From NCBI GenBank assembly GCA_039621445.1, contig CP154954.1:22084954-22148953 (forward strand): DNA of 64,000 nucleotides. Direction: 5' to 3'. This DNA is from Euglena gracilis (Eukaryota). Under the pieces are notes generated by a model that was given only the letters and a program-made list of their open reading frames with translations, was not told the origin of the DNA and did not search any database. Made by a program: the position numbers and the translations under genes. This document shows, one piece after another, positions 14,497 through 63,289 of this stretch; position 1 is the first letter of the stretch, and each line of letters opens with the position of its first letter.

Positions 14497-14793
14497 GGGA
14501 GGATATACAAAGATGTCCAAGATTTTGTCCATGGCATGGACTTTTGACAACGTGTATATAGGCGGATGCCAAACCATTTTGTCCCTAGCGAAGGACTTTT
14601 CGCTAAAGGACTACGGTCCTATACAACCAATTTTTACACTTGGAGCTACAATTTTGATTTTACAATTATTGCAAACATACAAATATTTTGTGTTTGTGTA
14701 CACTTGGTTGCATGCGTACAATGTTACCGTACAATGCCTTATTTCTCTGTTTCCCCACAGCTCAGCACTTGCTACTATCTGCTTTTTTTCAAG

Positions 14794-27169: not shown

Positions 27170-27730
27170 GCTGCAGCCCGGCTGCAGGTCTTTCAGCCAG
27201 CCCAGCCGTTTTCGGCTGAGATATCTGTCCCAGCTCAGATGACATCACAGGTTTTTCACCCAGCCAAGCAGTTTTCGGCTGGGTCATCTGTCCCAGCAAT
27301 CATGGGGCCAGCCCAGATGACTTCACAGGTTTTTCAGCCAGCCCAGCAGTTTTCGGCTGAGTCATCTGTCCCAGCAATCATGGGGCCAGCCCAGATGACT
27401 TCACAGGTTTTCAGCCAGCCCAGCAGTTTTCGGCTGAGTCATCCGTCCCAGCAATCATGGGGCCAGCCCAGATGACTTCACAGGTTTTTCAGCCAGCTCA
27501 GCAGTTTTCGGCTGAATCATCTGTCCCAGCAATCATGGAGCCAGCCCAGATGACTTCACAGGTTTTTTTAGCCAGCCCAGCAGTTTTGGCTGAGTCATCT
27601 GTCCCAGCAATCATGGAGCCAGCCCAGATGACTTCACAGGTTTTTCAGCAAGCCCAGCAGTTTTCGGCTGAATCATCTGTCCCAGCAATCATGGGACCAG
27701 CCCAGATGCATGGGCAGGTTTTTCAGCCAG
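27170..27730 (+). repeat. 78-bp coding tandem repeat, about 7 units (AQMTSQVFQPAQQFSAESSVPAIMGP)
   Basis: cagatg recurs at about 78-nt spacing from ~27236 to ~27703. Confidence 0.9.
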
Positions 27731-30568: not shown

Positions 30569-31900
30569 TTGGGGGCGGGAGCCGCCCCGGGCTCGCATAC
30601 CCAGCCCCACACAAAGACATATGCAAATCCCAGGTGGCAAGAAAAATGTCGTGCGAGTGAAAGCACGATGAAAAATCTGCCATCCCAGGAGATCTCTGCA
30701 CAAGGTTTGTCCAGTGTGTCGGGTGCGTGTGTGCGTGACGTGCAAATCTGTGACTCGGCCCAAATCTGTAAAAAACCAGACCTCATAAGAGGTCGTGCAC
30801 AGCCTTCCGTAAAGAAAAGAGCTTTAGACCTTTTTTGCGGTAAAGGCTCGGTTGGGGATTTCCTGAGAGAGCAGGGGTTTAAGGTTGTGTCAGTGGACAT
30901 AAACCCCAGATTTAACCCAACCCACTGTGCAAATATTTTGGAGTGGAGATATTGGAGGTACCCCCCCGGATATTTTCAGATCATCGCTGCGGGGGTGCCC
31001 TGTACAGAATATAGCTTGGCCAAAACGTTGGGAGTCAGAAATTTGGAGGGGGCAGATCGGCTGGTCAAAAAAACTTTGGAAATTGTCAAATATTTCAAAA
31101 CAAAGTTGTGGTGGATTGAAAATACCCGTCATGGGTTGCTTCGAAAAAGACCCTGTGTTCAAAATCTGACTTTTGTCGATGTTGATTATTGTCAATTTTC
31201 AGATTGGGGATATCAAAAACCCACCAGAATTTGGGGGAGCGAAAATCTGAGCAAGCTACAAAACAAACTTTGTGATGTCCAGACCTGCCCGAATTTGATT
31301 CCTGGGGGGAGGAGTCACCGTGAAAAGTTGGGAGGGTATGGAATGACAGTTGGCACCCAGAAAAAATGGAGGATGCCCAAACAACTGGTGGAGTATTTGT
31401 TAACCGTGTTGGAACGAAAAAGTGGATATCGTAGGGAGGATTATGCTGTTAGGAAAGTTTGTATGGAGGAAATTGAGAAAGTTTTTCGGGTTAAGGCAGA
31501 ACGGGATTGTTTTGCAACCAGCCAAAATGCCAGGTGTGAAAAGTTTTATGGGGAGGATGATGATGCCATGAAAAAGGATTGGGGGGCGGAGGAAACGTTG
31601 TGGATGAACCCCCCCTGGACTTTGTGGCCTGAGGTGGCTGAAAAATTGCAAAATTCCAATTGTCCGGCAATTTGTATTTTCCCAGACTGGAATAGGAGGT
31701 GGGTGAAAAATCTGGTGGCTATGGCTGTCAAAAAGATTTATTTTCCCAAGGGGACAAAGTTGTTTGAGGCTGATGGGAGGATTTTGAGGGGTACCCGTTG
31801 GGGGGTGTGGGCCTTGTTGATTGATAGAAGGCAACCCTCCCAGGGGGGGGGGCAGCCCCAGGAAGGAAAAAATTGGTTCGGCGGAAGAAAAGAATGTTGA
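30569..31900 (+). CDS. Fused C5-cytosine DNA methyltransferase (~30821-31410) and Dam-like N6-adenine methyltransferase (~31430-31830)
   Basis: C5: LDLFCGKGS (I), VSVDI (II), GVPCTEYS (IV), WIEN (VI), YQKPTRIW (VIII). N6: DCFATSQNARCEKFY...DAMKKDW...LWMNPPW...ICIFPDW. No stops across either domain. Confidence 0.9.
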   Translation: MGAGAAPGSHTQPHTKTYANPRWQEKCRASESTMKNLPSQEISAQGLSSVSGACVRDVQICDSAQICKKPDLIRGRAQPSVKKRALDLFCGKGSVGDFLREQGFKVVSVDINPRFNPTHCANILEWRYWRYPPGYFQIIAAGVPCTEYSLAKTLGVRNLEGADRLVKKTLEIVKYFKTKLWWIENTRHGLLRKRPCVQNLTFVDVDYCQFSDWGYQKPTRIWGSENLSKLQNKLCDVQTCPNLIPGGRSHREKLGGYGMTVGTQKKWRMPKQLVEYLLTVLERKSGYRREDYAVRKVCMEEIEKVFRVKAERDCFATSQNARCEKFYGEDDDAMKKDWGAEETLWMNPPWTLWPEVAEKLQNSNCPAICIFPDWNRRWVKNLVAMAVKKIYFPKGTKLFEADGRILRGTRWGVWALLIDRRQPSQGGGQPQEGKNWFGGRKEC

Positions 31901-32350: not shown

Positions 32351-32395
32351 AGACGGAGGGGTCCGCAAAAATTCAGGGATGACACAAATTTTTCA

Positions 32396-35300
32396 GTGGA
32401 CAGTGTGGCTGTGGCGGACGGGTCTTCGTTTGGGTTGCAAAAACTTGGTCTTTGTTTGCCTTTGGAAGGGTTGGACCAGGAATTGCAATTTTTTAGTGAC
32501 GAGGACTTGGGGGAGGTCGCCACAAATTTGGAGGGAAGTGACCCCCCAGTGCAAGTTATCAACCGAGTGATAATTGCAAGGGAGGGGGAGGACAAAAAAG
32601 AGGATGAACGGGTAGTCAAGTTGAGGGAACAAGTTTTGGAAGATTACGGGGGGACGGTATTTCGGTCATCGCCATTTCCAGACCCCCCCGAAAGAGGACA
32701 ATATGGTTATGCATACATACCGCTGAAGGAGGGGGCAAAGCCAACCAGACAGAAGCCTTTTTTCATGCACGGTGAGAGGAAAGAGGCACTTGAAAAAATC
32801 ACCCAAGACTGGCTCGACAAAAAACACATTGAGCCAGCCACAGCCAAAAATTCTGAATGGCTGTCCCAGACTTTTCCAGTTCCAAAAAAATACAACGATT
32901 TTCCTTGGAGGGGGGTGGTGGACCTCAGGGGGCCAAACAGCCAAACAAGGCGATGCAACTACCCCCTACCCAAAATTGAAGACATTTTGGTCAAAAATGG
33001 GGCAAACCAAATGTTTTCGATCATCGATTTGAAGCAAGCTTTCCACCAACAACCCCTACACCCAGAAAGTCGGCCCATAACGTGTTGTTTCACCCCCAAA
33101 GGCATTTTTCAGTGGAGGGTGAACGTAATGGGTTTGACAAATGCCCCCCAGCAATTTCAGCAAATGATCGATGACCCTTTGACACCAGTAAGGGATATCG
33201 CCACAGGGTATATAGACGACATACTGGTGGGGACAACGGTCGGGGAAGGGGAGGACCTGGTGGGGGCACACGAAAAAGATTTGAGGAGGGTGTTGGAGGT
33301 ACTCAAAACAGAACTTTTGGTGGCTGATGAATTCAAAGCCAACCTTTTTGTGGAGGAGGTTGAATTTTGTGGACAGATTTTAGGAAATGGGACTAGGAGG
33401 CCTGCACCGGGTAAGCTACGAGCGATCGAAAAGTGGGAGGTTCCAAAAACAATTACGGCTTTGAGAGCCTTTTTGGGATTCACAAATTATTACAATGCAT
33501 ACATTCACATGTATGCGGAAGTAGCAGCCCGGTTGCAAGACAAATTGAAAGTCCCCAGGGAGGTGGGAAAGAAAGGAAGTCGAAAACCTGTGGAATTTGA
33601 TGGGGAGGATTTAAAAGCTTTTGAGGAGCTGAAAAAGAGGTTGTGTTCGGGCCTAATGTTGCAACGGGTAGACCCGGATAAACCCTTTGTCCTAAGGGTT
33701 GATGCCAGTGGGTACGCCGTGGGGGCAACGTTAGAGCAAATGAAGGAGGGGGGAGGAAGACCCACAGCCCAAGATGTGATTGAGAAAAAAACTGTGCCAG
33801 TGGCTTTTATGTCTCGAAAATTGACCGAGGGGCAAAGAAAATGGACCCCCAGGGAGTTGGAGACGTACGCCATAATTTTGGCACTACAAAAATGGGAAAG
33901 TTGGATTGGATTGCAACCCGTTTTGGTTTTAACCGACCACCAAAGTTTGGAGTCTTGGACAAGGGAAGTCCTAGACACCCCCAGTGGTCCGGTTGGGAGG
34001 AGGGCGACATCGCACCAAATTTTCTCCAAGTACGATTTGACGGTGGGATATATCCCGGGTAAAGAAAATACCATAGCGGATATCCTTAGTCGGTGGGCAT
34101 ACCCAGCTTCACAGGCCCTAAGGGATATAAGTAAGCATGGGTCAGCCGAAGACAAGGATGAAATGGAAAATTTTATCCGGGAGGTAAAAGAAGAGGAAAA
34201 ACAGTGTTTGGAGATAAGAATCAAAAACCAGCCCAATTTACGTAATGCCTGGATACGGGGGGTGACAACCCGTAGTGGCAAAAACGTAACACCTGAGGAG
34301 GAAAAAGGAGAGTGCACAAGGAGGGGAACCGAGGGTGGGGTAGACCCAGGAGGAAAAGACACCCCTGTGGACACCCACTCACAAGGGCCCAGGAAAGAAA
34401 AGAAACGAGTTCATTTTTGGGATGAGAAAGTGGGGGGGGAGACGACCCCTGTCCCGGAGACGGCTGAAAATTCGAGGGGGGACACTCGTATGGAAGTGGG
34501 GGACGCCCTGCCAAGTACGACCCCTAAGGATATTAAGCCCGTATGGGAGCGTGATTGGGGGGAAGCATATTCCCACTGCCCCACATGGAAAGAAAAATGG
34601 GTAGCTACCAAAGGCGATTCAATTTGGCCAAAGGGCTTCAAAGTGCTAAATGGCCAATTGTTTTTTGAGGAAAAGTTGTGTGTGCCTGAAAGTTTTCAGC
34701 ACTTGGTGATTCAAGAAAATCACGACTTTCTGGGGCACGTTGGCCCTGAAAAAAGTTTGGAAACACATGGCAATCCGTTTTGTTTGGGCTGATGAAAAGG
34801 CTGCAAAACAACTCAACCAAAATTGCAGCAAAAATTGTTCCACATGCCAAGCGAGTGTGAGGGGGGAGAGTTTGAAAGGACCGATCGAGTCCACACCCAT
34901 ACCCCCTGCACTAATGACAAGTGTTGCCATCGATTTGTTTCGAATGACAAGGGTTTTACACGACGGGGGGGGGGAGTATGACACCCTTTGTGTGGATAGG
35001 CATTCGGGATGGATTGTGGGGGTTGCATGCAAGGACAAGGGATTAACCGGTGCCAAGTTGGCTAAGGAAATGGTGAAAAATCAGTGGAGGCCTTTTGGGG
35101 TTCCCTCGGTTATCTCAAGTGACCAAGGGAGCCATTTTACAAGCACTTGGTGGAAAAATGTGTGTGCGCTTTTGGGGATTAGGCAAGCGTATTCTCAAGC
35201 ATACCACCACCAAGCAAACGGGAGGGTTGAGAGAGCCGGACAACAGGTAATGGAGGTGTTGAGAAAATTGTACGTGGGGGAAAAAATTAATTGGGTTGAG

Positions 35301-36020
35301 GCTTTACCCCAAGTTTTGGACCGAATTCATGACGTAAAGGGGGAAAGCGGATTGAGCCCATTTGAAATTTTGCATGGAAGGGAACGACCACTGGCAGGGG
35401 TACCCTACCAACCACCCAAACAATGTGAGGATTCGGTGGAGTTTTTCCAAAGGATGCAAGACATTGATGGGAGGGTGGCTAGGATACTCAACAAAAAGCA
35501 TGAGGAGGAGGTGGCAAGGATAAATAAGGGGAGGAAAGAAATGGAACCCCTAAAGGTGGGGACGACAGTTTGGTATAGGAGACCCGAGGGGTCGGGTGAG
35601 AAGCTTGACTCTAGGTGGGTGGGACCTGGGGTCGTGAAGGGTAGAGAAGGGGAACGAAGTTATGTAGTCAAATTGAAACCTGGGGTGGAGACAAAAGCTC
35701 GTAGGAGTTTTTTGAAGGAGTATCGGGAACCCCAAGTGGAAGGTAAGGGGGTGCCTCTTTTTTATTATAAACGGACCGAAAAAGAAGAAGAGGCATTACC
35801 TGATGAGTGGGAGGTGGGAAAAATTCTAAGGCACCGAAAAGCAAAAGATGGAAAGTGGGAATTTTTGACCAAGTGGGTCGGATATGAGGACGGGGAGGAG
35901 ACCTGGGAACCGGCTGTAAATTTTTTTCACAGATTCAGTGGAGAGTTTGTGAAGTATTGCCGTGAGAAAAAAGTGAAAATGGACATAATGTCCGAACTTA
36001 AAATTGACGGTGGGCCGTAG
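32396..36020 (+). CDS. pol: Pol of element B: RT, RNase H, integrase, chromodomain (frameshift near 34750 in an A-run)
   Basis: WRGVVDLRGPN, IDLKQAFHQ, YIDDILV, FLGFTNYY, VDASGYAVGA, ELETYA; HDFLGH/CSTCQ; IDLF, SSDQGSHF, NGRVER; WEVGKILRHRK...KWVGYEDGEETWEP. Confidence 0.95.
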
Positions 36021-44923: not shown

Positions 44924-47896
44924 ACCGTGCCCCGGGCCCAGGGAGACGTCTTTTTTGGCCCTCGCCACAAGGAGAAACTCCTCATGACTCCCTGTGCAGC
45001 CACAGGTCGCCGGTAGATACTATGGGTGTAAAGTACAAAACGTTGTATGGAGTGCCGTGCATGTCCCGCGGTCAGTGGTTAGAGGAAAATGGGAAAGTCC
45101 CATCTTCAATATATACGGCGGGGAGAGAGGGGTGTGTGTGTGCTTTGCTTGCCACTGTTGGCGTGTTTGAGTCATTTGCTGATTTTTCTTGGTGTTTTTG
45201 GTTTCAGAGCCGTCCGAGTGTGGCAGGTAAGAAAGATGGCCCCATGGCCATTGTTCTGTGTGGGCCACCGAAGGTGGTAGAGGTGATAGAGGTGGCAAGC
45301 GCACTGGATGAAGTCACACTCAGAAATACGGGGAATGCGTACCAGCGCTACTGCAATCAAGCAGTTGCTCAGGACACTGTCCCCATGCCAGTTGTCGTGC
45401 CAGCTCGCGCATCAAAGCCATTCCAAGCCCCTGCCATGCACTGGCCTCCACACCCCGCCACTCCCAGCCGTTATGTTGGCTTGTTTGGAGGCGGATGCAT
45501 GTGGAGGCGAATCCTTGGCCTGCTTCACTCATGCCACCGTGGCAGTCCATCACCAGTGGGATAAATGTCCAAACTCGTCGCTTGCAAGGCTCCCCATATT
45601 TGACGATTTTGTCTTCTTCCTGTCGATTGTGCCAATTGTCCACCGGAGCTGGAGGTGACCTAGAAGGTGCAAGTGGGTGCCTCACTGTGACATCAATGGC
45701 TGCGGGACCATTTGCGTCGAATCGAGTGATAAAATCATCACCCGGTCGTGTTCCATCCTCAGCTTTTTCTTCTCGACGTGCAGGAAAGCCAGCTCGTTGT
45801 GCCAGATTCAAGACAAAGCTTTGCACTGCCCCGTGCCGCCGAAAGAGGTTGTTACGGTGGCAGCAGACGAGGTGGTGGCCGGCTGTGTCAAGTGGGCTCA
45901 TGCATCGAGGACATCCAGGAGAGTTGCTTTCTTCTGTTTTTACCACAGGAGCGCCAAGCGTCCATTGGAGGAGGGCAACAAACTCTTTTGTGGGAACAAG
46001 GGTTTTTGTGCCAGCAGAGGGGACTGCACATGTCCAGGCCATGGCATGAGGCCTTGTTTGGCAGGAAAATCGAACGGCATCGGATCCGGACAGGGACTTT
46101 TCCAGTTTCTTTTGGCGCAGAATTGAGCAGACGTTTCTGTGACACCATTTCTCGTGGTAATTGGGTGGCACGGGTGCAGTAATCTGTTAAGCCTGCATGG
46201 GCTGACCTTCAAATCTTCAAATCCGGTGGATTCATATTGCGGATTACAAAGTCTGGCAGCCCCAGCATCGTTTCAGCCCTTTGGAGAAAGTCCAGTTGGG
46301 CTGACCACCGTGCAGCGAGTCGGCATTCCTGCGGATCCTTGATTCCTAGTCCCCCCAAACGGGGTGGCAAGGTGGCCTGTGACCATTGGTTGTCATCAAC
46401 TGGTGCTGTCATGATGCAACTCAGTGTGTTTCGTAAACAGTGGCTCAGCAACAAGCATTGATCCCCAGCAAGAGGCAGTGGAGTTCCCCTTAATAAGTCA
46501 TTGACGCGACACGCATCCAAACACTGTCGCAAAAGGGTGTACTGGACATGGGCACTTGGCACAAGCTGTAGGAGATTGCATGCCTTCAGAACCATTTCAA
46601 CTCGTGGAGCCCAGACAGTGGAGGCGAACCCCCCCCTTGCTGGGTGGCAGACTGGCGGTCCAAGGACCTTGAGGCCACTTGCTTCAGAATATGACTGCAC
46701 TGGGATTTGTTGGGGCGGGGTTGTGTTGGCTGGGAGGCTGGACCATTCCATTCCAAAGGCAGGTCCCCACAACCGACACTTGCACCTATTCAGGGAAACC
46801 CCAATGAGGGGTCCTTCACACAGAATGTATCGGACTGCTGTTTCCAGTTGTTCTGGGGTGCCCACGAGATGGGCATCGTCCAAGTACCATGCTTGCCATC
46901 CGACCAGCTCACCCACTTTTTCAACCAGATTTTGAACTGCAATTGCGAACGCCGCAGGACCGCATGGGTCACCTTGTTGCACACCACTTTTGCTGCGGAA
47001 GGAGGTTGAACCGCAGTACAAAGTGGAATGCTCACTGTAGCAGCTCTCCATCCATGCTGTCATCTCAGGGCAGCGTTCTCGAACAGCGTCCAACATACCT
47101 TCACAGCGCAGGCAGTTGAAAGCATTTGCAAAGTCCAATTGCAGCACACCCCAATCTTGAGCACCTGTGTGATGGAGACAGCCAACAAGCTGCTGAAGCC
47201 CAATGGCGACAATGGAACAAGGATCAGAATGGCCAACACCGAACTGTCCAGGTAGATTGTTGCAAACTGCTGTTCTCACCACTTCCGGTCTCATGATCAC
47301 TTTTCCCACCAGACGACGCAGGCACTCGCCCGCTGCTATGGGCCTGGTTCCCTCTTCTTCTGGAGTAGGTGGGCATTGGTTGCCAAAATCATCGGTGTTT
47401 TTGGCTGCCCTCACTTTCCGCAAGGCTGTCAGTCTGACTGCTGCCATGATTGCGGCAGGTCCTTTTGGCAAACCATTGTCAATGGTGCGGTAACAGAAGG
47501 CCGTGAGTTCGTCCAAAAGGTCATCTGCATGGCGTCCTGCATCATGACCCAGCAAACACCGAAGGTGGTCGGGCATCAAGCCAGAGGGGCCTGGGGAGGA
47601 TTCTGGGCCAAAGCTGAAGACTGCCTATAGCATTATGGTCCAACGTTGTTGCATGTCTTCCTCGGAAGTGGCAGCTGGTAGCGAACGTCTCATGGTCGCC
47701 GGGCCAAGTCCAGGAGGTGGTTCATGTGGATGTAATTGCCGGAGGCGTTCGCGTACCAAAGGGTTGTCGGGATCTTGAACGCCATCCGAAGTGAACAAAT
47801 TGCAGGCTTTGGATACTGCACCCCTGCCGACCAGTCGTTCCAGTCTGGAGACAAATTCTTCTTTTGTTACACAATGGCTTTCGATGATTCTTTTTG
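44924..47896 (-). mobile_element. 5'-truncated CRE-like non-LTR retrotransposon with RT and restriction-like endonuclease
   Basis: RPIAAGECLRRLVGK, DFANAFN, GVQQGDPCGP, WYLDD; CPRC...HHLVCC, RH, RPGD, IDVTV, EEDKIVKY, PLVMDCHGG; stop at 45320. Confidence 0.9.
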
Positions 47897-50000
47897 CACC
47901 ACCGTTGGGAAGTGTCGCTGCCGGATGCGCTCGCGAAGGCAGCAGGGTTTGTCAGGCGGCTGCTTTCCGGGTGACGGGCCCCAAGCGTTGAGCACAGATC
48001 GTGGGCGGCTTGCTGGCACATGCGATCGTCCGGCGCGGCGGCATAGTCGGGGCACGCAACTTTCTTATGACCGTGCGTATGAAATTGGCACAGCGCTGCG
48101 GCACGCGCTGCTCCTTGATGGAATGCTGGGATTCGGAGGCCACAGCCACCCAGGGAGAGCGGTAGCGCCGCTTGGAGCCGCTGGTCCGAACCCAGGGCCT
48201 GCCCCAAGATGTCCTCGAAGGCACCGAAGATGATTTCGCCGCAGCGAGTGACTTCACGCTGCGCTTGGTAGGAGTCCGAGGCGCGCAGGAGGTGGTTCAC
48301 ACGGCAGCCGTCCAGGCAGTACCGCAAGAGGTGGTGTGCCAGCTGAGGATCGGCGACATAGGTAACGAGGTCCGCAGCTTGCTCAATCCTCTCCGTTGCT
48401 TCAGCCCAGGTGGCGCTGGTGTGGTCCGTGGAGGCGGGGAAGTCGACTGGGCTGCCTAGGACCGTGATTCCTGACCCCTCACACCAGGGTACTGTTCGCA
48501 ACTGCTCCCGGTCGGGGAGGCCGCCCGAGGCCGGCCCCCAGAGGACGCACTTTGCCAGGTTCAGCTGCACCCCTGTGCGTGTACTCTCGCTGCGTAGGAA
48601 GTCGAGGCACTTTTGAAGGACCGGTGGCTCCCCAACAAGGATGCCGTCGTCCAGGTACCAGCAAGACCACAACAGTTCCGCTTGGGTGCTGATAGCTTCA
48701 GCAATGGATTGGAGACCCACCGCGAAGCCAATCGGTCCAAGGGGGCAGCCTTGGTGCGTGCCTCTGGTGGATGGCAAAACGCGGCCGTCGCTGAAGAGGG
48801 GAGCTGGTTGACCGTACGCAAACCGCAAGTAATTGAAGAGCGCGGGTGTGCGTGCTTCGGCCTCCCGCAGCGAGACCCCCCTGTCTAGGGAGTTGAAGGC
48901 GTTAGCCAGGTCCACTTGAAGGACCGCCCAATTCCCTTGGGGGCTCAGCTTCCTGATCAGGTTCTGGGTTGCCAGGGCGACGGCCTCAGCTGCATTGGAG
49001 ACCCCCACACCTACCTGCAGCGGGCTCAGCTTGCCAACCTGATCCTTGGCGGCCCCAGTGTGCAGTAGCGCCTTGCCCACAAGGCGGCGAATGGTGTCGC
49101 CCACGGCGATCGGACGTACGCCGTCACCCTTCTTCCGCAAGGGCGTAAGGTTGGCGGCGCACCACCAGGGCGCCTGCTCCGTGGGGAGTAAGCCGTCCAC
49201 CCAGGAGAGTTTCCCCAGTGCCGTGAGCAATCTGGCTCCATGGCCTGGTCTGCGGACCGCGTCTTGGAGGTGGCATGGACGTGACCCCGATGGGCCAGGC
49301 GATGAGGTCCGAGGGAACCTCAGGATGGCTTCCCGCAGGAGCTATTCCCACCGAACTTCCTGGCCGTCAGGAAAAGGGGGTAGTCTTCGTGAGATGGTTC
49401 AGGGTGCAGCGCCTCCAGTTTGGCCCAGACAGCCGGGTCGCTGGAGCGGTGTGTCCCTTCGGACAGGAGGACTTGAAGGGCCTTCGCTGGGGCCCCTTCG
49501 CCAACCAGTGTCCGTGCCTGCCGAAGCGTAGCGTCTGGGATGGCAGCTGGCTCGGTGCGAGCCTTTTTCGCCGCGCGGGTCTCTACGGCTACCGGTGGCA
49601 GTTTGGTAGAGTTCTGCAGGTCACTCCAAAGGGTGGTGTAATCCCATTGCCTGAACAGTTTGACCCGCCGCGTGATCGCAGAGGAAATGTCTTCCGGCGC
49701 TTCTCTCCCCCCGCTGGGGACGGTTCGTAGGACCAATTTGGGGAAAGCCAACACTGCGAACAGGGTGTCCGCCGTTGGCCTTCCGACATATTCCAGCAAG
49801 ACGTCGGACAGGGTCTCAGATGCATCCCGTTGGTTCGCAGCCGGCACGTGGAGCACTGTTTTCACGGCTTAACAGGATGTCTTGTATAGCGACCGGCGCT
49901 GGGGGCACATGATGCGCGGCAGAACGACGTGCCGCAGGTCATTGTTGTTGCCGCTGGGGTCGATGATCATGGTGGCCTGGGTGTCGTCCGCAGGGTGAGC
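47897..50000 (-). mobile_element. GC-rich CRE-like non-LTR retrotransposon RT region lacking its endonuclease and 3' end; 5' boundary approximate
   Basis: GVRPIAVGDTIRRLVGK, DLANAFN, GTHQGCPLGP, WYLDDG, LGGCGL; ends at SQRW. Confidence 0.88.
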
Positions 50001-52733: not shown

Positions 52734-55700
52734 TCAACCCGTTGTTGGTAAACAGGCGCATAATCTGCGAGCTCCTGGATCGCTGGCGCGGCACGTTGGC
52801 ATGGTCGCTGGGTTGTATAAGAAGTTGATGAAGCACTGGGAGGATTTGGGCTGGAGCCACGGGGTCGGTGAGGCAGAGGTGGATCAACCACATACAACCC
52901 TTGTTCATCAGCCGCAATCACCTTGTTGTGTCACCACCTGGGGACATTGGAGGGGATTGGCTGGGCCCTCTGGTCAGATGCAGGCAGGTGCAAAATTTCT
53001 TGGAAGGAGGGGGCTTTGGAGGGGGGACATTGGTCACGAGAAAACTCGGCGCAAAATGGCAGAAAACTTTTTTCGGGCATAAACCCTCAAAATCACGTTT
53101 TTACGCACTTTTAAAAGAAATTGGCAAAAATGTATTCAAAACTTCACTTCCCAACACAAAGTGCCGGGGAAGGAAAATTTCAGAGGTCCTGGACCCCCCA
53201 GAGGGCAACCCCTGTGACTGGGAGGCCTCCAACCCAGGTGGGGTGGTCAGGAAAAAAAGAACATCGGAAAAAACTAAACCCCCCCAAATAACACCCCCCC
53301 AACCCCCCCCCCCAAATAACACACCCCCCCCTCGAGGGCCGATTTCGAGCACCCAAATAACACCCCCCCCTGTTTTCCTTTGGTTTTCCATGCAAAAATA
53401 ACCCCCCCCCCCCAAATAACACCCCCCCTGGGGCCCCAGTTCGGGTGCCCAAATAACACACCGGGGGGGGTGTTATTTGGGGGGGTTTACTCAACTCCCA
53501 TTTTTGAAGGTTTTGGGTGTACAGTAGGGAAACTAAATAGTGGGACGGCCCTGGGAAACTAAATAGTGGGACACCCCCAAAAAATGCTGATCCCTCGGAG
53601 ACCGTCAGCGCGTTGCAAAGGGTTTTCAAATTGTTGCAATATCAGGAGGCTTCAATGTGTGGCATGTATAAGGTGTACCCAGTACCGTCCAATGGATGGC
53701 CTAGGGCCGTGGGGGGCCTGTCATTAACGGGTGGGACCAACATCAGCGTCGAGCACAGCAGCAAGACAGCTGGGCATCGACGCGTGTATACCTCGAATTT
53801 GTTCGGGAGAAATGTCAGCAAAAGCACGCTGCAGAGCTGCCCAAGGTTTGTTTCGGTTAGGGAAAACACATCCTTCGAGCTTTGTGAGCAAGAAGCACGA
53901 CGTCCTGGCTGCAATGCTGTGAAGATGCTGGATGACGGGTCCTGCACAAGCTTCTGCTTGGAGATAGCGGATCTCCTCGGTTTGCCAGGCGTAGGAGTGG
54001 GGAGGTCTCCGCGGTCCATTGCAAATGATGCATTTTCCAAGCTCCCATTCGAAAACCGTTCCCCCTGTGAACTGTGAGGCACAGGCTTAGCAAATGGGAG
54101 GAAACGATGGGCTGGGGCAGATGCAGCTCTCCTAGATAAGAGGTGGATTGAACACCCTGCCCCCCTCCCCCCATGCAAGGCGAAGAAACGAGGCCTGTTT
54201 GCGGCCCGCAATGAGCCCGGAACTCAACCCGATCGAGCACCTGTGGGTGCTTGTGCTCGCAAAGCTCGAAGGATGTGTTTTCCCTGACCGAAACAAACTT
54301 TGGGCAGCTCTGCAGCGTGCTTTTGCTGACATTTCTCCCGAACAAATTCGAGGTATACGTGCGTCGATGCCCAGCTGCCTTGCTGCTGTGCTCGACGCTG
54401 ATGTTGGTCCCACCCGTTAATGACAGGCCCCCCACGGCCCTAGGCCATCCATTGGATGGCACTGGGTACACCTTATACATGCCACACATTGAAGCCTCCT
54501 GATATTGCAACAATTTGAAAACCCTTTGCAACTCGCTGACGGTCTCCAGGGGATCAGCATTTTTTGGGGGTGTCCCACTATTTAGTTTCCCTGGATCGTC
54601 CCACTATTCAGTTTCCCTACTGTATTTGGGGTTGGCCATATTTAGAATAAGCTGATATCTGCCGTTTTTATACCGTTTAATGCAAATTCCTTCATATCAT
54701 TCAGAGTCATCAGAGGTTGATTCAGAGTCATCATATCATCAGAGGTTGATTATATTTGGGGGTTGCTTATATTTGGGGGTTGCTGCAAGAGGGGGTTGCT
54801 CACATGGGGGAGGGGGTTACAGGACACCAGGAGGTCACTGTGGGGCTTTCAAAAAAAGAATTGAAGAAATATAATGGTGAACTGTTTGTAATTCCTGCAA
54901 CCAGTGCCTTGCGGCGGACGTCTGCCCCTGGGCATTGCGCTGGAGCGGTCAACGATGCATTCAGAGCACGCTGTCTGGAAAGCCAAGGCAGGGGGTTCCT
55001 TGACAACCCATGGAGAATGAAACAGCAACTGGTTGGACGGAGGTGGATGGAGGTGTGGGGGGGTGGTTTAGTGCCACTGGACTTGGCAGCCTGGCTGGGA
55101 AGAAACAACCCCTGGCCGGCTGGAGCCCCTTGGGGGGGGGTCCTCTCCGGCCTGAGAAATCCTCTGGGCCTGGCTCAGTGCCGCGCAGGAGTTGACGGGG
55201 GTCAGCGTCAGCAGCCGGGGAGGGAGGGGCCACCGACCAGTGTGTCTCGGGGTTGCGCGTTGGGGGGGGGGGGGGCTGGAGCTGTGGCAGTGTGTCAGTA
55301 CGGATTGACAAGGATTCTCAGTCCGTGCGACCCTTCAGTGACAATGTGGTGGCCCCATTTTGGGTCAAGTGGGGAAGTTGTGGTCAATGGTCAATTTTGG
55401 GTCCAAATTGAGCCTTCTTCCCAAGCATGTATCGGGGCACCATCGCAAAAAAAGCAGGCAGATGGCAAAACACATCTGCAGATAAAAAACAACATGTGAG
55501 AAAACACAGAGCAAAGATGATGTGAAGTCGTTCCTCTTGCTACTGTCACTTGCAGGGCTTTTTTTGCAAGAAGTAATTGTGCACATCAAATTCAAATTCA
55601 GGGCATCTCCCCTCGGTCAGTGCATGACTCATTTAAACGGCCGCAGACACTGGTACAAGAATGACCTGAGACGGGCAGGTGGGGGGGGACCCCACCGACC

Positions 55701-58700
55701 TCAGGGCGATGAGGTCCATTCCATACACACACACACACACACACACATGCACACACCACGACACAGACAAAACATCCAGAAAGGGAGGGAAGGAAGAGGC
55801 ACACGGAGAGCATTGCAAATGATGGCAAACCACCGATACCCCAATATCCTCATTGAAACTCATCTGCTTTTGGAAGCAGCCCAATGCAAAAGAGTGAAGG
55901 GGCCCCAAGAGCTGGTGCCGCTGCTACAAAAATTTTTTGCTTGTAAGAATTTCACGAACATTGCCTACAAATTAATGTTGTGATTGTCGACTTTTACGTT
56001 GGTGGTATTTTTTCTGGGACAAAACAAACTGATTTTCAGAAACAATGAAAATTGAAAAAGAAATTCCCGTGGAAGCGAACAAAAGGTGAAAGCACTTCGA
56101 CCTTAAAAAAAAATCAGAACAAACCCAAGAAACAGCTGTTAAAACTGGGCATGTCGCTTCTGTGATCATCGACATGGATGTTGAAGGGAGACCCATGAGC
56201 ATGATCTACTGATTGCATCACCTGCATCAAAATTTGGACGGTGGAAATCGAAACTCAGCTTTGGGCTGCTTGACCAAAATTTTGTCTGGCAGGCTTGGAA
56301 TCAATTGCCTCTCGTTTGGCGGCACAATTTGATGCACCGGCAACGTTGCAAAAACAAGAACACCCGCCTGCCGAAAAGTGGAACCCCAAAGGGCATGGCC
56401 ATATGGCTTCGGTGGCAAACGTGCGAGGGCCACCGGCCCAGCGCCACACGCCTTCGGGCCCGGGGCGGAGGGCCATCCCCGCGTACGTCACGTTGAGCCG
56501 CCGCAGCACCTCCGCCCGCAGGGGCTGCACGTACGTCCCGGCGCTGTACCGCAGCATCCAGACGTGGGTGGCCGGGTGCCCCCGGCAGACGGCGGCGCGC
56601 CATGCCGCCGCCTGGGCCCGCGACGGCGGCCCCGGCGCCCCACCCCTCGGCGGGCTCGTGGCCCCGCCCGTACTCGATGCGGTGGAACTGCTCGTAGTGC
56701 TCCGGAAGGGGCCGGCGCTCCCCGAGAACGCCGCGGCGCAATGCACCGCCGCCAGACATCGTCACACCGACCCTTGAGCGGGGCAGCCCCGCAGCAGGCA
56801 CACACCCCAGCAGGGCCAGACGCCTGTTGCGAGGAGGCCTGGTGGGTGTGGGTGGAAGCCCCCCTGGGAGGTGGGGACCATGCCATTGCTTAACGACCCC
56901 CTGGGGGGAGGGGGGACACTTTCCACTTTCAAAAAAACCAGTCACTTTTTAAAAGCTAGTCACCCACTGTTTACCCCACTCCGGGGGGGGCGGTCAGTCA
57001 CTTTGACCACTCGGCCAAAAATGCCTCAGAATCAATGGGTTTTGGCCAAAAACACCAAATTTTCCACGCCGAAAGCGAAGGCGCCAGGTAGCCACTTTCG
57101 GGCAATACTGGCCGACCCCCCCCCCCCCGGGGGTCTGGAGCCACAACCAAAAAAAACCATTCAGTCATCCTCCGGGGGTGGGTTCGAATGCAACTTGAGC
57201 AATGGTGTGGTCGGGACCCCCCCTCCCCCACCTATCATTGACTCCGCAAGCGAAAAACCATTCGGCACCACAAGTGTTGAAGAATCTTTAGCTGACAAAT
57301 TGGCAACACAGCAAAATGAGACGTGGTGGGGGGCACCCTCTTCCTCGACGCAACCCAAAGGATTTCCGGTTCCCTGTTCATGCCTCAGTCAGCGGTGTTG
57401 GTGTTGGTTCTGGGACTCACCATCGGCACAAAAAGATTTCTCTTAAACATAATCGATTTCTTTGGCCAGCGGTTTCAAAATGCATCCCCTCATTCTGCCA
57501 CAGCCCCCCAGGAGTGGGACCTTCCATGCCGCCTTGCAACGCAGTGCAAGAACCCACAGGATTCTTAAAAAATCTCCGTAATTGGCAGAATGTGCGTTGC
57601 AGATTGCAGAATGGCGAACAGGTGGTGGCTGGCCCATGCATTGAGGGGTGGTCTGTGGTTTGGCTGGCTGTGGGGAGGGAAACCATTGATCCCCCCCCAT
57701 AGACCCAAGAGGGGAGGGCACTTTATTCAAGCAAAAGCCCACCTGTCCACTTCTTCTTCTTCTTTTTGAAAAACCACCCTCCCTCCCTTCCTGGGGGAGG
57801 GTCCACCCACTCACCCAGCCCAAAACCACCCGAAACCAGCCAATCCTTGAAAATTCTCCAGGCAAACCCGGCGTAGTTGGGCGTACCTGTGGCACACCCC
57901 ACCCCTGGGGTGGGGGTTCTGCGGCCCAAACCCACCACTCTCTTGAAAAAAACCCCCATCCATCTTGGGACTTGGTTCGCACGAGGTGAATGCACCCACA
58001 CAGCACAGTGCACAGCACAGCGCAATGCAGCAGAACGAGATACTACCCGACACAATGTAACAAACAAACACATCAGCAGCAGCAGCAGCAGCGTGACGAC
58101 GGTCATTTTGTTCATTTTGTTGGCTGTCAGAAGGGCCGTCCCCGGCCCACCACAGCCGATATGCCGCACCGAACTCCAAGCCACCCACAGAGATTCTTTC
58201 TCCCCAGCATCCTGTCATCCTTCCTGACCTGGGGGAGGTGCCTCGCTGGAGGCAGCGTTCTTTTTCTCGAGGAGGAACTTCAGCGGAGGAAACGATGAGC
58301 CACCTGGTTTGCTGAAGCCAGCCCATCCCCCCTGGCAACCACAACAAAAAATCCCAGGCCTCCACCAGATGCAGATTTCCGCAGGTTCTCTGGCCTACTC
58401 TTGTCGAACCACGGCTTGACTCCTGAGGAAGGAAAGAAAATTGGGTCGCAAAAATTCAGAGTCCGAATGGTAGAGCGCATAGATAGAACAATGGCGAAGG
58501 GGAGGCGTCGTCTCATCTGGACCACAATTGAACACACTTGTTTGGGTGTTGTTTTGCAAATTGAAATTGAAAATCGCAAATTGCAAATCAAAAATCAAAG
58601 CACCCAGCCCTGGAAATGTGCGCCGGGTGTTCCATGCAGTCACACCCATTTTGCAGGCTGGCCCTGCTCTCACAGAACCCCAAATGCATGCCGCACTTGC

Positions 58701-61700
58701 TTCTGAAATTCATGTGCCGTCAGGGGACGCACACACCGCGGAAGTGGAACAGCTTCACCTTGGTCAGCGGCTCAGATGCGGCCCGATGCATGCTGTAGTA
58801 ATTCGAGAGCCGCACGAAGCGTGGCCCGAAGAATGCCCGGGCCACCTCCCCGTCCCTCGCGTCCACGGCAGGGGCACGCCGGAGTCGTCACCAGCCCGTC
58901 GGTGGCTTTGGGACTTCCGGCAGGGGAAAATGCATCGTCAGTGTATGTTGGACGTAGAATATCACATATTCTTTTGATTGTGTAGATTTCAGAGGTTGTG
59001 TTGCATTCATGCTGTTTTATCCCGTCGCACTTCAGCAATTTTTGGAGGGCTGGCCCAGCCAATATACACTTTTTTTTTTGCAATTACAGGTCTGCCGGGT
59101 GTTTAAAAAAAACACTGGGACAGGCGAGGCGAGCTGGGACGTTTTTGACCTCGCCAACATGGTTTCCTCCTGGGCCACATGTTTTGAAGCAAAACAGGCA
59201 GGGAAAAAAACAAGGAAAAAAGATTCTGCAACTGAAATATACTGGTCGGGGCAAGCTCCTGGCCGACCCCGCGGTATCGGCCTGTCCGGACGCCCGCGTG
59301 GAAGTGGCGGACCAGCGCATCAAACACGTCACGGTGGGGCAGGATGGTCATCATGCCTGTCTGGAAATACTTCTTGTTTCCTGTGGAAAGATCAGAATGA
59401 GAACTTCTGTGATTAGAGGTGGGGTGGCCAGGGCTGTATGGGAAGGGAACCTGAAATTGGTGGACCAAGAGAACCGGGAAGGCTGGGGGGGGGTCGACGC
59501 CCACCACTATCCAAGGGCTTCGGAGAATCTCGTACAGCCCTGGGGGTGGCGGACCAAATGGTCCCCCAGTTGCTGCATGGCGGCGGCAAGACCAACAACA
59601 AAAGCACCCCTGCGTGATTCCGACCGCAAAGCCACAGCACCTTCGTGCCTTTTCAGCTTCCATTCAATGACTGAGAAACTGACCCCCCCCCAGCACGGCG
59701 CTGTGGGTCGGGGTTGCGCCAGCGTGGTCGTGATTTGGATGGCACACCGGAGCCCAGGGCACCGACGAACGTCTCATTGGGGAGGGGGAAGTTGAAGACG
59801 GAGTCCGGCTCGTCGAGGGCGAGCATGTCGGCGTCGAAGAAGGCGACCATGGCGTACTCCGTGAGGTTCCACAGGTACAGCTTGTCGAAGGTGTCCCGGG
59901 CAGGGCTTGCCGCCCAACCCAGAGATCCCCTGTCCACTCCAGACCTGTGTGTCCACCCCCCACCCCCCACCGTGTTGGTATGCCTGGTACAGAACGAGGG
60001 CCAGGGGCCTGCTCATAGCTTCACTTGGTGCTTCCGGGGGGGGGGGGGGCTAAGGATGGTCTTCCAACCGACCCAACCACCCCAAAGCCCGCCCCAATCG
60101 GTACCAAATCCAAAAATTTGCGCTCGGCCCAGCCTCCAACTGGTGCAGACTGACCCTGAGGGAGTGGGTCCAACAGCCCAAACCCACCCACCAATTGAAA
60201 ACCACTCGAATCCCCACCACAAATCCCTCTTCTTCTGCTTTGACTCCTGTAACGATGCCGCTCCCTTTGCACCATTCATCAGCTGCCCGCTTCTTCAGAG
60301 CAGAAGAACGGTTGACAGTCCTTCCGTACTTCAAATGGCCACACATCGCCCCCTCCGGCTTCTCATGGCCCAGACCTCACGACCTATGCAACTGCGACGG
60401 CGGCCCACGCATCCCCCCGACGGACGTGCACCTTGAGCCGCATATGCATCGACCCCCGCACGGACCCCCCAGGGATGGTCAGGGCTGGGCCCCCCCCCAC
60501 CCACCACCCTGGCTGTTTTGGCCTATTCCCGCACTGCCCTGGAGATGGGGGAGGGCCGACTGGAGTGGCGCTCTGCAGCGGTGGGGCCCTGGCACCGCCA
60601 GCGGCTCTCCGGCACGAGGGGGGCCAGGCTGGGGACGCTGCGCAGGTGGCGGTAGCCCACCGCCAGGCGTGATTTTTTTTTACCGCGCCTTAAAAAACTT
60701 TAAAATGGCTTAAACTGCACCTGAAAAGTTCTGGCCAAAATGCCTCAAAACGCCTTAAAAATCCGGACTGGTGGAATTTTCTCTGACCAAGCAAACATTG
60801 CAAATTAAAATCGCGGCAGAAACAGACCAACTGTGGGAAGAAAACCGATTTCTGGCATCGCTGGAACATTGTCTATCCAATAAAACCCAAGAAAATTTTT
60901 TTTGACTCATCTGAATTTGGACGACATGTAAAATCAGAAATGTTGGCTCGATGCCCGGATAGCCCTTGGACAGCCCTGGAACATAACGACTTAAAAAGTC
61001 TTTAAAAGCCTTTAAATACCTTAAAAGAGGCGTTAAAGCTTGAAATTTATTTTTATAAAATTTCCTTAAAAATAATGCCTGCCCGCCGCTCGCAGCCGCC
61101 GCTGGCTCTCCGGGTGGAGGGTAGGTGGGCAGAGCAGCACGAGCTCACACAGACCCTCCTGCAGGAGTCGAGGTGGATCATGATGGACCGCCCCCCTTCA
61201 GCGTTACCAAACCGATCTTTTTTTGCCCGTGCCGCCGTTTGGGCAATGCCACAAAACTACTGCTTCCTCCATTCTCCACTTTTCCTTAACAAGCTCTAGT
61301 TTTTGTTTTATATTACGCCTGTCGAATGCTTCAGATGGGAAAGCAGGTGGCCCAGGTGGGGGGACGTCATTTTGTTGAACTAGTGGACCGGATTTAGACA
61401 GCCAGGTAAGGCAAGGCAGGCAACTGGTCCCGGGACGCAAAGGCTCCGCTCAAAGAGGGACCTCCTTTTTGACATCGATTTCCTCCTCCTTTTTGAAATA
61501 ACCATCGTCTGAGCAGAAGGAGCAGAAGGAAAGAATAACAAATCAATTGTAGGTGCACAGCCAGTGTGCCCATCCCCTCCCCAACAATTGCTGCAGTCCC
61601 ACGCCCCTGTGGCATGCAGGAACTCCTGGCCGACGGGCAGATTCCTAACCGCCTTGTGTAGGGGGGCCAGGCAACAACAAAAAAAAAGGAAAATGGCCCC

Positions 61701-61990
61701 CCAAGGAGGGATAAAGACCGGACCACCAAGGATCTGACGGGGTGGGGACTCCACCACATCCAAATCCCAGACACCCTGCCGACGTTGAAGACTGGCGGGA
61801 CGTTTAAAACCGAGAAACTGCCTGGAAGAAGGGGCCCACCTGCAACAGGTAAGAGGTGTTGAGTAGCGACACAGCGAGGACGATCGCCCCGTCCACGTAC
61901 TTCTCGTTGCTGATGACCGAGACAAAGGCATACTTCCAGCAATCGCCCCACTTCGCCGCCAAGCTTGGTTGACCAAATTTCAGAACAAGA
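52734..61990 (-). CDS. Multi-exon glycosyltransferase family 8 (glycogenin-like) protein with Cys-rich C-terminal domain; N-terminus unresolved
   Basis: Exons ~61990-61840 (KYAFVSVISNEKYVDGAIVLAVSL), 61158-61085, 60658-60595, 59895-59748 (DTFDKLYLWNLTEY...FDAD), 59380-59265 (YFQTGMM), 58863-58737 (KLFHFR), 58422-~58366 (GVKPW), ~58200-58145 (YRLWW), ~56700-56453, 55665-55615, 55216-55170, 54983-~54930, ~52865-52734 (RRLCAC...stop); junctions given with exact coordinates are phase-compatible. Confidence 0.85.
53273..53491. mobile_element. Small MITE-like element with taaacccccccaaataacaccccccc inverted ends and internal aaataacacccc repeats
   Basis: Left end is the reverse complement of gggggggtgttatttgggggggttta. 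Confidence 0.6.
53522..54622. mobile_element. Palindromic Tc1/mariner derivative with ~370-bp inverted arms and TA TSD
   Basis: TA|CAGTAGGG...CCCTACTG|TA; transposase C-terminus SPELNPIEHLW...ASMP at about 54205-54420. Confidence 0.9.
54984..55169 (-). other. Non-conventional intron gccCAGaggatt...aaccccCTGccttg
   Basis: Joins NSCAALSQ to AFQTACSEC in frame. Confidence 0.75.
58864..59264 (-). other. Non-conventional intron ggcCAGgagc...gcccCTGccgtg
   Basis: Joins RYRGV to DARDG; in-frame stop just upstream of the exon with no AG in between. Confidence 0.75.
59896..60594 (-). other. Non-conventional intron tgcCAGGGC...GCCCTGcccgg
   Basis: Joins SRWR to DTFDKL in frame; no AG at the acceptor; 6-bp terminal stem. 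Confidence 0.8.
60659..61084 (-). other. Non-conventional intron formed by a hAT-like MITE (60664-61081)
   Basis: TIRs match 12/14; 8-bp TSD cccaccgc/cccgccgc; removal restores RRLRAAGYRHLRSVP. Confidence 0.85.
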
Positions 61991-62633
61991 CTGACGGTTA
62001 TCGGACTCGTCGAAGGGTCTCAAAAGGTCTACCAACGCTCACTCAATACCCTGTGCCCCCATCCCCAACGGGGGGGAGGTATCCCACCCGAGTGACCAGC
62101 CGACACCAAAGGGGGACGATGGGCCCGGGAGGCGCCACCCTTCACCGCCTCCAGAACGGCACTGCGGCGAGGGGGAGGGAGGCGCCGGCGGTGGCAGCGG
62201 CCCCCCAACTGGCCTGACCGAAGAGGGGAACCCCCACCCGACAGGGAGGGTTGGGGTGTGGGTGGGGGCTGCTGGGCGTGGGGGCGCGGAGGGGCCCCCG
62301 GCCTCCCTCGGCGGTCCGCCTGGGCGGGGGGCAGCCGCCGGCGGGGAGGGCTCCCCGCGCTGGGCCGAGGGCTGCCTGTGTCGTCAGGCGAGACCCCCCC
62401 TGACGACTTCACCTTTCGCTGGCTCCGGAACGGTTGGTTTTTTTGCTGATTTGGGTCCTACACACGAGTGGGTTTGCCGCATGGGGCACAGGCAGGGGGT
62501 GGTCGGAGGCTGGGGGAAGGGCGCACGAGGGGCGTCACCCGAGTGTGGGAGTAGCTGGGCAGCGGCGGGCCTCCGGCTCGGCAGCAGCGTCGGCGAGCAG
62601 GGACCCCCCCCCCTTGGCACGGCCGATCCCAGC

Positions 62634-63032
62634 GTAAACCCCCTCCCTAATAAGTGCGCGGTGCCCTAATTGTGCGCAGTGCCCTAATAAGTGCGCACCC
62701 CAAGGGTCCGAAACTACCTCCCTAAAAAGTGCACACCTCCCAAAGAGAAACCGTTGTCACATTTCAGGTCGGAAAGCAAACACAATTCTCAGAACGGTCC
62801 TTCTCAGACCAGATATTTCCATCGTCCAAACCCAACTTTGACACATAACCACTTGAATCATAGCTTGACATCACAAGAAGGGGGAAAACTGAAAAAAGAG
62901 TGGTGGAAAGTCAAGCATTGTGAGCTTTGCCCTAATAAGTGCGCAGTGCCCTAAATAAGTGCGCACCCCTTGGGGTCCGAAACTACGTCCTTAAACTGTG
63001 TGCACCCGTGCACTTATTAGGGGGGGGTTTAC
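62634..63032. mobile_element. MITE-like element with gtaaacccc...cctaataagtgc TIRs and internal ccctaataagtgcgc repeats
   Basis: Left end is complementary to gcacttattagggggggggtttac; internal direct repeat 62664-62720 resembles 62930-62990. Confidence 0.7.
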
Positions 63033-63289
63033 CCTTTGAGGGTTGCGAGCCACAGCGGTGCAGTTTGGATTCTGATTGGTCTTTCCAGTGAAGTGGATGT
63101 AGCTTGGGAAGCACCTTACTGGCCATGGGAAGGTGGGAGAGCTGCGACTGGGGGGCAAACATAGGCTGCCAGCGTGCCAGACCAAAAGGAAAGGGAAGCG
63201 ATCGAGAGAGTTGCCAAAAACAGGGAGCTCCCTGACGGAGGCTGTTCCGGACGGCGTCTACCTGTGATGAAAACATGACAGCTGGAGTG

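Follow-up and report, generated by a model that had tools for sequence, protein, structure and literature searches.

The window analysed here, a stretch of 64,000 nucleotides (nt) of the Euglena gracilis genome (contig CP154954.1, positions 22,084,954 to 22,148,953), carries on its minus strand a glycosyltransferase gene of the GT8 family. A conserved block of one exon of this gene is split by an AT-rich insert of 418 nt, 60664-61081, which has features of both a transposon and a nonconventional intron. All positions are those of the window and are given in plus-strand coordinates. The family assignment comes from the homologues P0007 and P0010, which pass the Pfam GT8 threshold. The exons were placed by tblastn with the homologous sequences P0003, P0004 and P0006, followed by inspection of the junctions. 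In the sense of the gene, exon A (61931-61840, 92 nt) is followed by a GT-AG intron (61839-61159, 681 nt), half-exon B1 (61158-61085, 74 nt), a predicted nonconventional intron composed of the insert with 3 nt and 5 nt of its flanks (61084-60659, 426 nt), half-exon B2 (60658-60595, 64 nt), an intron of nonconventional type placed by gap-free alignment with P0003 (60594-59896, 699 nt) and exon C (59895-59748, 148 nt). A further intron of nonconventional type, placed by colinearity with P0004 and P0007, lies at 59264-58864. In both of these other introns CAG begins at +4 and CTG at -8, and the 8-nt flanks of each are identical at 4/8 positions.

The insert is set apart from its surroundings by composition. 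Its G+C content is 0.376, compared with 0.745 and 0.615 in the 200 nt to its left and right, respectively, and 0.512 in the whole window. The element begins with CAG and ends with CTG, and its ends form terminal inverted repeats of 14 nt (60664-60677 on the plus strand and 61068-61081 on the minus strand) that are complementary at 12/14 positions. Immediately outside are two 8-nt repeats, 60656-60663 and 61082-61089, identical at 7/8 positions; the flank can also be read as 9 nt (8/9) if the terminal G is counted as part of it. Read in the sense of the gene, 61082-61089 contributes 5 nt to the exon and then 3 nt that form the predicted intron's 5' spacer; of 60656-60663, the first 5 nt are predicted to be intronic and the last 3 nt exonic. 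Short motifs are concentrated within the element. There are 6 copies of CTTAAA in the 418 nt versus 7 in the remaining 63.6 kb of the window, and 11 of the window's 40 copies of TTAAA are here. They are found in a left subterminal array of (G)CCTTAAAA-like motifs (60686-60760) and a right subterminal array of CTTAAA-type motifs (60987-61075), both on the plus strand and assigned to the repeat families D1/D2. The insert is short and AT-rich and has no room for a transposase, as is characteristic of a MITE (a transposable element of the miniature inverted-repeat class). An earlier examination of this DNA from its letters alone, the sequence-only reading, had described an AT-rich 418-bp insert with terminal inverted repeats and many subterminal motifs, flanked by a 7/8 duplication inside GT8 coding sequence, and this description is confirmed at 60664-61081.

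The same reading held that removal of the element plus 3 nt of one flank copy and 5 nt of the other deletes exactly one copy of the duplication and restores the peptide, a result that we could reproduce. After removal of these 426 nt, the gene model aligns with P0003 without gaps over 89 residues. The joint between B1 and B2, which sits within a conserved R-L-x-x-x-G-Y/W block, is also crossed without a gap in the alignments with six further homologues, and both half-exons are colinear with all seven. If only the 418 nt are taken out, 8 bases too many remain and the frame is shifted. Compared with every homologue, the window thus has one 8-nt flank copy too many, which argues for a true target-site duplication (TSD). 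The sole mismatch between the two flanks falls in the copy predicted to be intronic, and the exonic copy retains the alanine codon shared with P0003. Both half-exons have kept open frames and conserved residues.

The code by which Euglena nonconventional introns are recognised has been derived from knock-in genetics (PMC12501133). As set out in the available text of that paper, it comprises a CAG/CTG pair (or complementary CD'G/CH'G) with a 3-nt spacer before CAG and 5-6 nt after CTG, a purine starting the downstream exon, and pairing beside the motifs; fully synthetic 50-bp introns bearing just these features were spliced (PMC12501133). The predicted intron 61084-60659 has CAG at +4 to +6 and CTG at -8 to -6, with spacers of 3 and 5 nt. 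It starts with G, and the exon resumes with G, the required purine. It also agrees with the weaker consensus given in PMC4770533, in that a pyrimidine ends the upstream exon, +1 is a purine, the last intron base is a pyrimidine, and G/C are found at +7/-9. The ends of the intron pair, CAGGC with GCCUG, in both the minimum free energy and the centroid fold; the fold energy of the whole intron is no better than that of shuffled sequences (z = 0.64). Judged by its letters, the insert has all of the cis features of the published Euglena code, and the +4 CAG / -8 CTG geometry that the sequence-only reading had assigned to it coincides with the cut positions of a genetically tested system. The GT/GC-AG boundaries of spliceosomal introners are absent from the predicted intron, which begins with GG and ends with GT. 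Two other introns of the gene have the +4/-8 arrangement with junctions fixed by homology, and this organism therefore uses introns of this kind. Because of the fit to the code and the intact, conserved half-exons, it is likely that the insert is removed from RNA as predicted.

Could ends and flanks of this kind have come together by chance? The window was scanned for CAG...CTG pairs 40-3000 nt apart with ends matching at no fewer than 11/14 positions and 8-nt flanks matching at no fewer than 7/8. There are 72,564 CAG...CTG pairs in the window. The end filter was passed by 185, and only 2/185 also passed the flank filter: the 418-nt insert and a second element of 114 nt at 59429-59542. When the right flank was shifted by +1 to +5 or by -1 to -3 nt, each of the eight controls gave 0/185. 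The structure of the insert, ends and flanks together, exceeds chance expectation. Looser thresholds added only artefacts, all of them within a 78-nt tandem array at 27230-27731. Across all 64 end trinucleotides there were about 11 non-microsatellite matches in 7,358 end-filtered pairs, and CAG, with 2/185, is not uniquely enriched; within 64 kb, a small sample, the enrichment of the CAG class is only modest. The second element has ends complementary at 12/14 positions and perfect 8-nt flanks (59421-59428 and 59543-59550), for which 8 nt is the sole possible reading (8/8). It is G+C-rich and sits within intron 4 of the GT8 gene, a GT-AG intron two further along, 1.1 kb from the insert. The ends of the two elements have just CAGG in common.

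Sequence data from 14 runs with 11 study codes, guessed to be DNA or of unknown kind, contain 62-71% of the words sampled from the region; none of the runs listed as containing it is recorded as RNA. Four of the 24 listed runs were mapped: X5 (one of these 14, DNA, at 80% likeness), X15 and X17 (guessed to be RNA, as is the case throughout X15-X20) and X21 (raw RNA reads). Single-copy parts of the gene have contig depths of about 140-200 in X5, typically about 145, and the second element is close to this (147.7 in the bin 59126-59500). Over the insert, summed depth reaches 80,226 in the bin 60626-61000 and 121,446 at 60699 (44 contigs); summed contig depth is not a copy number, and these values mean only that there are many copies. 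At 60699 and 60708 nearly all of this depth has C in place of the window's T and G, so the motifs of the family form a cleaner CCTTAAAA series than those of the window. A core of 33 nt (60847-60879) is common to many genomic copies, with loose ends piled up at its borders, 106 records before 60847 and 131 and 97 behind 60879/60880. The same borders are seen in the raw RNA reads of X21 (20, 20 and 21 reads). The consensus of the loose parts resembles the neighbouring sequence in the window; the homology therefore reaches beyond the core, at less than 80% likeness.

Eight DNA joints in X5, from 60714-60761 to 60815-60847 or 61057, mark internally deleted members of the family. Those from 60755-60761 to 61057 belong to members in which the left arm is fused straight to the right end region, joining the two subterminal arrays. 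The left junction of the insert is spanned by an X5 contig (60501-60873) at single-copy depth with 0 mismatches. On the right side, the contig from 61062 includes just 20 nt of the element and does not formally bridge the junction. In its inner and subterminal parts, the insert is thus a member of a very abundant AT-rich repeat family and not a single-copy sequence without relatives. The description of the element as young did not find support, as its ends differ at 2/14 positions and its flanks at 1/8, and most contigs of the family match short cores at 80% likeness. Rfam searches were empty both for 59000-62500 at E<=1 and for the entire window at gathering score, and for this reason the repeated core is taken to correspond to no known RNA family. 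A likeness of the core to Euglena spliced-leader RNA was considered and dropped, since long gaps interrupt it and the Rfam search was empty. A search for a 29-nt core in metagenome contigs gave 0 matches.

Evidence for the state of the gene before insertion comes from a relative. P0003 is an open reading frame (ORF) of 128 residues from a 1.35-Mb contig of this relative, 66-73% identical to the window in exon C. It begins where the window's protein has a valine, continues unbroken through the insert site and the next intron site and, past the end of exon C, runs into unrelated, intron-looking sequence. P0003 reads as an ORF on genomic DNA, and the relative would therefore have no insert at this site. 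An orthologue lacking the intron, one of the checks proposed by the sequence-only reading, has apparently been found in one relative. A search with P0003 against proteins of similar length returned P0003 itself and P0002 only, and a metagenome scan for the P0006 locus gave 595 pattern matches with 0 confirmed. In a related organism, P0004 is without about 38 residues that are present, just upstream of exon C, in the genomic-looking P0006. This difference may reflect either the removal of a small nested intron or an insertion polymorphism.

As a whole, the locus is best explained by transposon insertion followed by scarless nonconventional removal, to which we assign a probability of a little over 60%. 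A short, non-autonomous, MITE-like DNA transposon would have entered the GT8 exon and duplicated 8 bp of its target. It would have come from the abundant AT-rich family, with inverted ends CAG...CTG and subterminal CTTAAA-type repeats. In the pre-mRNA the inverted ends would pair and so juxtapose the junctions, and the nonconventional-intron machinery would cut 3 nt before CAG and 5 nt past CTG. The 426 nt removed would consist of the element and one 8-nt copy of the duplication, restoring the pre-insertion frame. Nonconventional introns reportedly become circular RNAs after excision. Very probably, the element did arrive by transposition and the 8-nt duplication is a true one; that this copy is spliced, and that a transposase making 8-bp staggered cuts placed it here, are the parts that we infer.

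Several observations weigh against this explanation. Of 221 joints 15 are listed, and the RNA joint that it predicts, 60658/61085, is not one of them, which is a case of missing data and not a negative result. The sole joint listed for the region, 61865/59896, bypasses B1, B2 and the insert together. It skips 1968 nt (59897-61864, minus strand) in RNA-type contigs, one each in X15 (depth 223.8) and X17 (67), which are from different studies, and it is not seen in the DNA run X5. The skipped form is no trace product, because the depth of its contig exceeds that of the downstream exon contig at 58786 (223.8 vs 99.2 in X15, 67 vs 24.5 in X17). Paralogue transcripts are present in the same runs, as seen from loose ends at 59822, 61874 and 61916, and may contribute to it. 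A protein search with half-exon B1 against longer proteins had 0 matches at E<=1 among 188 candidates and yielded no spliced product. In addition, the repetitiveness seen in X5 is that of the inner and subterminal parts, not of the 14-nt ends or of 8-bp duplications around other copies. The sequence-only reading had called for further copies, and these are plentiful in X5 for the inner and subterminal parts; in the window itself, blastn with a word size of 7 found only matches of 12-22 nt and no second copy. When up to 2 mismatches were allowed in the end pattern, the window contained 4 matches, 2 of them exact and these the insert's own ends, versus 2.56 expected by chance. Finally, P0003 is without two adjacent introns, and intron loss in its lineage could also explain the unbroken frame.

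Has the insertion simply broken the exon? The gene would then be a decaying duplicate or would be expressed in the exon-skipped form only, the insert would never be removed alone, and its fit to the code would be a by-product of its end sequences. We consider this unlikely. The skipping joint in the runs of two studies, the transcripts of paralogues in those runs and the empty B1 search are consistent with it. However, the skipped form, which is in frame, gives up 54 residues that all seven homologues conserve, among them part of the GT8 fold. Its junction is off-code, with CAA at +4 to +6 and CTG at -7 to -5; the donor is inside exon A and the acceptor is 1 nt from the normal one. In B1 and B2 the frames are open and the conserved residues are in place, and the expected joint may be among the 206 that are unlisted. 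A different issue is which kind of transposon this is. The ends of hAT elements have the motif YARNG, and their targets tend to carry T as the second base and A as the seventh. The sequence-only reading had labelled the element as hAT, and part of this label stands: an 8-bp duplication is present, 7/8 at the insert and 8/8 at 59429-59542. The end motif is matched at 4/5 positions in the insert, which has C as the fifth base where hAT has G, and at 5/5 in 59429-59542. The remainder of the label did not find support, as neither 8-nt flank of the insert has T2/A7 on either strand, which is a weak criterion, and no hAT transposase was found among the 10 longest of the window's 83 ORFs of at least 170 residues, which have retroelement-type domains or are unassigned. 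The flank bases, the fifth end base and the lack of a hAT transposase among these ORFs, together with the 9-nt reading of the flank, leave a non-hAT superfamily with duplications of 8-9 bp (Merlin, P or Mutator-like) as a real possibility, although on the doubtful side; in that case the number 8 would not be specific to hAT. The exactly 8-nt flanks and hAT-like ends of 59429-59542 argue for hAT, as do the subterminal short repeats, which are typical of Ac/Ds-type elements.

It is very improbable that an older nonconventional intron, formed without transposition by break repair, for example, was later invaded by repeat sequence, with the 7/8 flanks a repair scar or a product of chance in coding sequence rich in G+C. 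A precedent exists in the recently gained gapC intron of Euglena agilis, found in one strain only, at which 'eight nucleotide direct repeats' were read by the authors as a mark of break repair (PMC4770533). High copy number has been proven just for the inner and subterminal segments of the insert, and its flanks are CCGCC-rich, with similar motifs nearby (family D13). However, the AT-rich, motif-laden sequence extends up to both inverted ends, and the DNA joints that tie the left arm (to 60755-60761) to the right end (from 61057) place both arms in one family. The shifted-flank controls, 0/185 in each case, and the exactly 8-nt flank repeat of 59429-59542, an element with the same type of ends, also speak against such an origin.

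The full-length homologue P0007 is without 15 residues, the I-S-N-E-K-Y-V-D-G stretch, of an N-terminal GT8 block that is invariant elsewhere. This gap terminates near the start of the skipped isoform of the window (61865/59896), and internal nonconventional splicing of the exon with this block may therefore be recurring in the GT8 family. At 58786, in the downstream exon contig, all mapped runs, including DNA, have G where the window has A, and there are several more fixed differences elsewhere, due either to strain variation or to errors of assembly.

Where euglenid nonconventional introns come from has been debated since the 1990s. The sequence-only reading had pointed out that 3+5=8, and at this locus the arithmetic is correct, since removal of 3 nt, the element and 5 nt takes out exactly one 8-nt duplication. 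The second element, 59429-59542, fits the same sum, with the same type of ends and flanks of exactly 8 nt, and so do the eight-nucleotide repeats reported at the strain-specific E. agilis intron (PMC4770533). In the junction consensus reported in PMC4770533, the upstream exon end and the last base of the intron are pyrimidines (49/55 each), and purines stand at intron +1 (51/55) and at the start of the downstream exon (55/55). On this model, duplication position 5 would be present twice, once as the base that ends the upstream exon and once as the base that ends the intron; position 6 would likewise be present as intron +1 and as the base with which the downstream exon opens. That the pyrimidine/purine consensus fits duplication positions 5/6 is something we infer from the numbers of PMC4770533, not a statement of that paper. 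Direct repeats at the junctions are reported for 84.4% of introns (PMC12501133). We tentatively suggest, as a generalisation with not quite an even chance of being correct, that the 3/5-nt cut distances are the RNA-level counterpart of a transposon's 8-bp staggered target cut, that most euglenid nonconventional introns descend from CAG...CTG elements, and that the insert is a member of a still-recognisable family of these. The +4/-8 rule, the 'slidable' direct repeats found at most junctions and the pyrimidine/purine consensus of both junctions would then be explained together, and any CAG...CTG insertion in the right target orientation would be erased scarlessly from the mRNA.

A MITE origin of nonconventional introns was said by the sequence-only reading to have been proposed, and this is borne out by the literature. 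The proposal was made in 2014 (PMC3935182), 'TSD-like' repeats and CAG/CTG as inverted ends are already in print (PMC11282704), and the suggestion is repeated in the discussions of PMC12501133 and PMC12621601. The earlier proposal of a MITE-like source rested on inverted ends alone; this locus unites a code-compliant insert, an abundant repeat family and a demonstrable 8-nt duplication. In a full-text literature search, no paper was found to identify the 3+5 spacers with an 8-bp duplication, to name hAT or to place a nonconventional intron in a repeat family. As far as could be found, a testable, quantitative account of the intron geometry has not been published. The prediction is that repeats flanking young nonconventional introns, counted from CAG/CTG, should have their length maximum at exactly 8 nt. 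If this holds, the geometry of splicing would be tied to the cut geometry of a transposase, and it would show how a genome can tolerate massive exonic insertion of transposons. In the genome of Euglena agilis, about 72% of all introns are reported to be nonconventional (PMC12501133).

The rest of the window is also rich in repeats. An inverted pair of near-identical ORFs at 53541-54603, has a weak match to DDE_3 (18.6 bits, below cutoff) and a stretch resembling NPIEHLW, and it has the look of a remnant Tc1/mariner-type transposon in a large intron of the GT8 gene; X5 depth here is 14,000-19,000 vs about 145. Other very high-copy repeats in or near the gene have summed depths of 621,298 (53126-53500) and 58,397 (56876-57250). 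At 62501-63250 the summed DNA depth is 270,000-497,000, with tandem units of 18-20 nt at 62645-62697 and 62928-62965. Positions 1-50000 are mostly retroelements (for example 32351-36020, 13030-14496 and 46209-49341), whose ORFs have Ty3-type reverse transcriptase, RNase H, integrase and chromodomain, along with further reverse transcriptase ORFs. Tandem units at 6413-6501 are found again at 15242-15359, an apparent duplication. The ORF at 30551-31900 has Dam-like and cytosine-methylase-like matches.

Among known systems, hAT elements of the Ac/Ds type have an 8-bp duplication, short inverted ends starting from CAG, subterminal repeats and internally deleted derivatives. The insert has the same duplication length, CAG ends and subterminal repeats, and its family the same kind of internally deleted derivatives; it differs in that the target consensus is lacking and that the 10 longest ORFs of the window include no transposase. 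Ds has reportedly also acted as a de novo intron in maize, where removal is said to use cryptic spliceosomal sites and to be imprecise. Intron 4 of gapC in Euglena agilis ACOI 323, a recently gained intron, is similar in its repeats, which PMC4770533 reads as double-strand-break repair, with no family reported in the available text. Compared by description, the inverted ends, motif arrays and copy number of the insert point instead to transposition. The closest likeness in RNA geometry is to the euglenid nonconventional introns of PMC12501133, PMC4770533 and PMC3935182, with which the predicted intron has in common the CAG/CTG positions, the 3/5-nt spacers, the downstream purine, the paired ends, the lack of GT-AG and the junction direct repeats that make the cut 'slidable'. 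Unlike the introns described in the accessible text of these papers, the insert visibly belongs to an abundant AT-rich family with subterminal arrays. The introner elements of Micromonas, Aureococcus and dinoflagellates (PMC11282704) are likewise non-autonomous DNA transposons that enter exons and use the TSD for scarless splicing. Introners supply or co-opt GT-AG for the spliceosome, whereas the insert has no GT-AG, and how far the cuts lie from the paired CAG/CTG would determine its excision.

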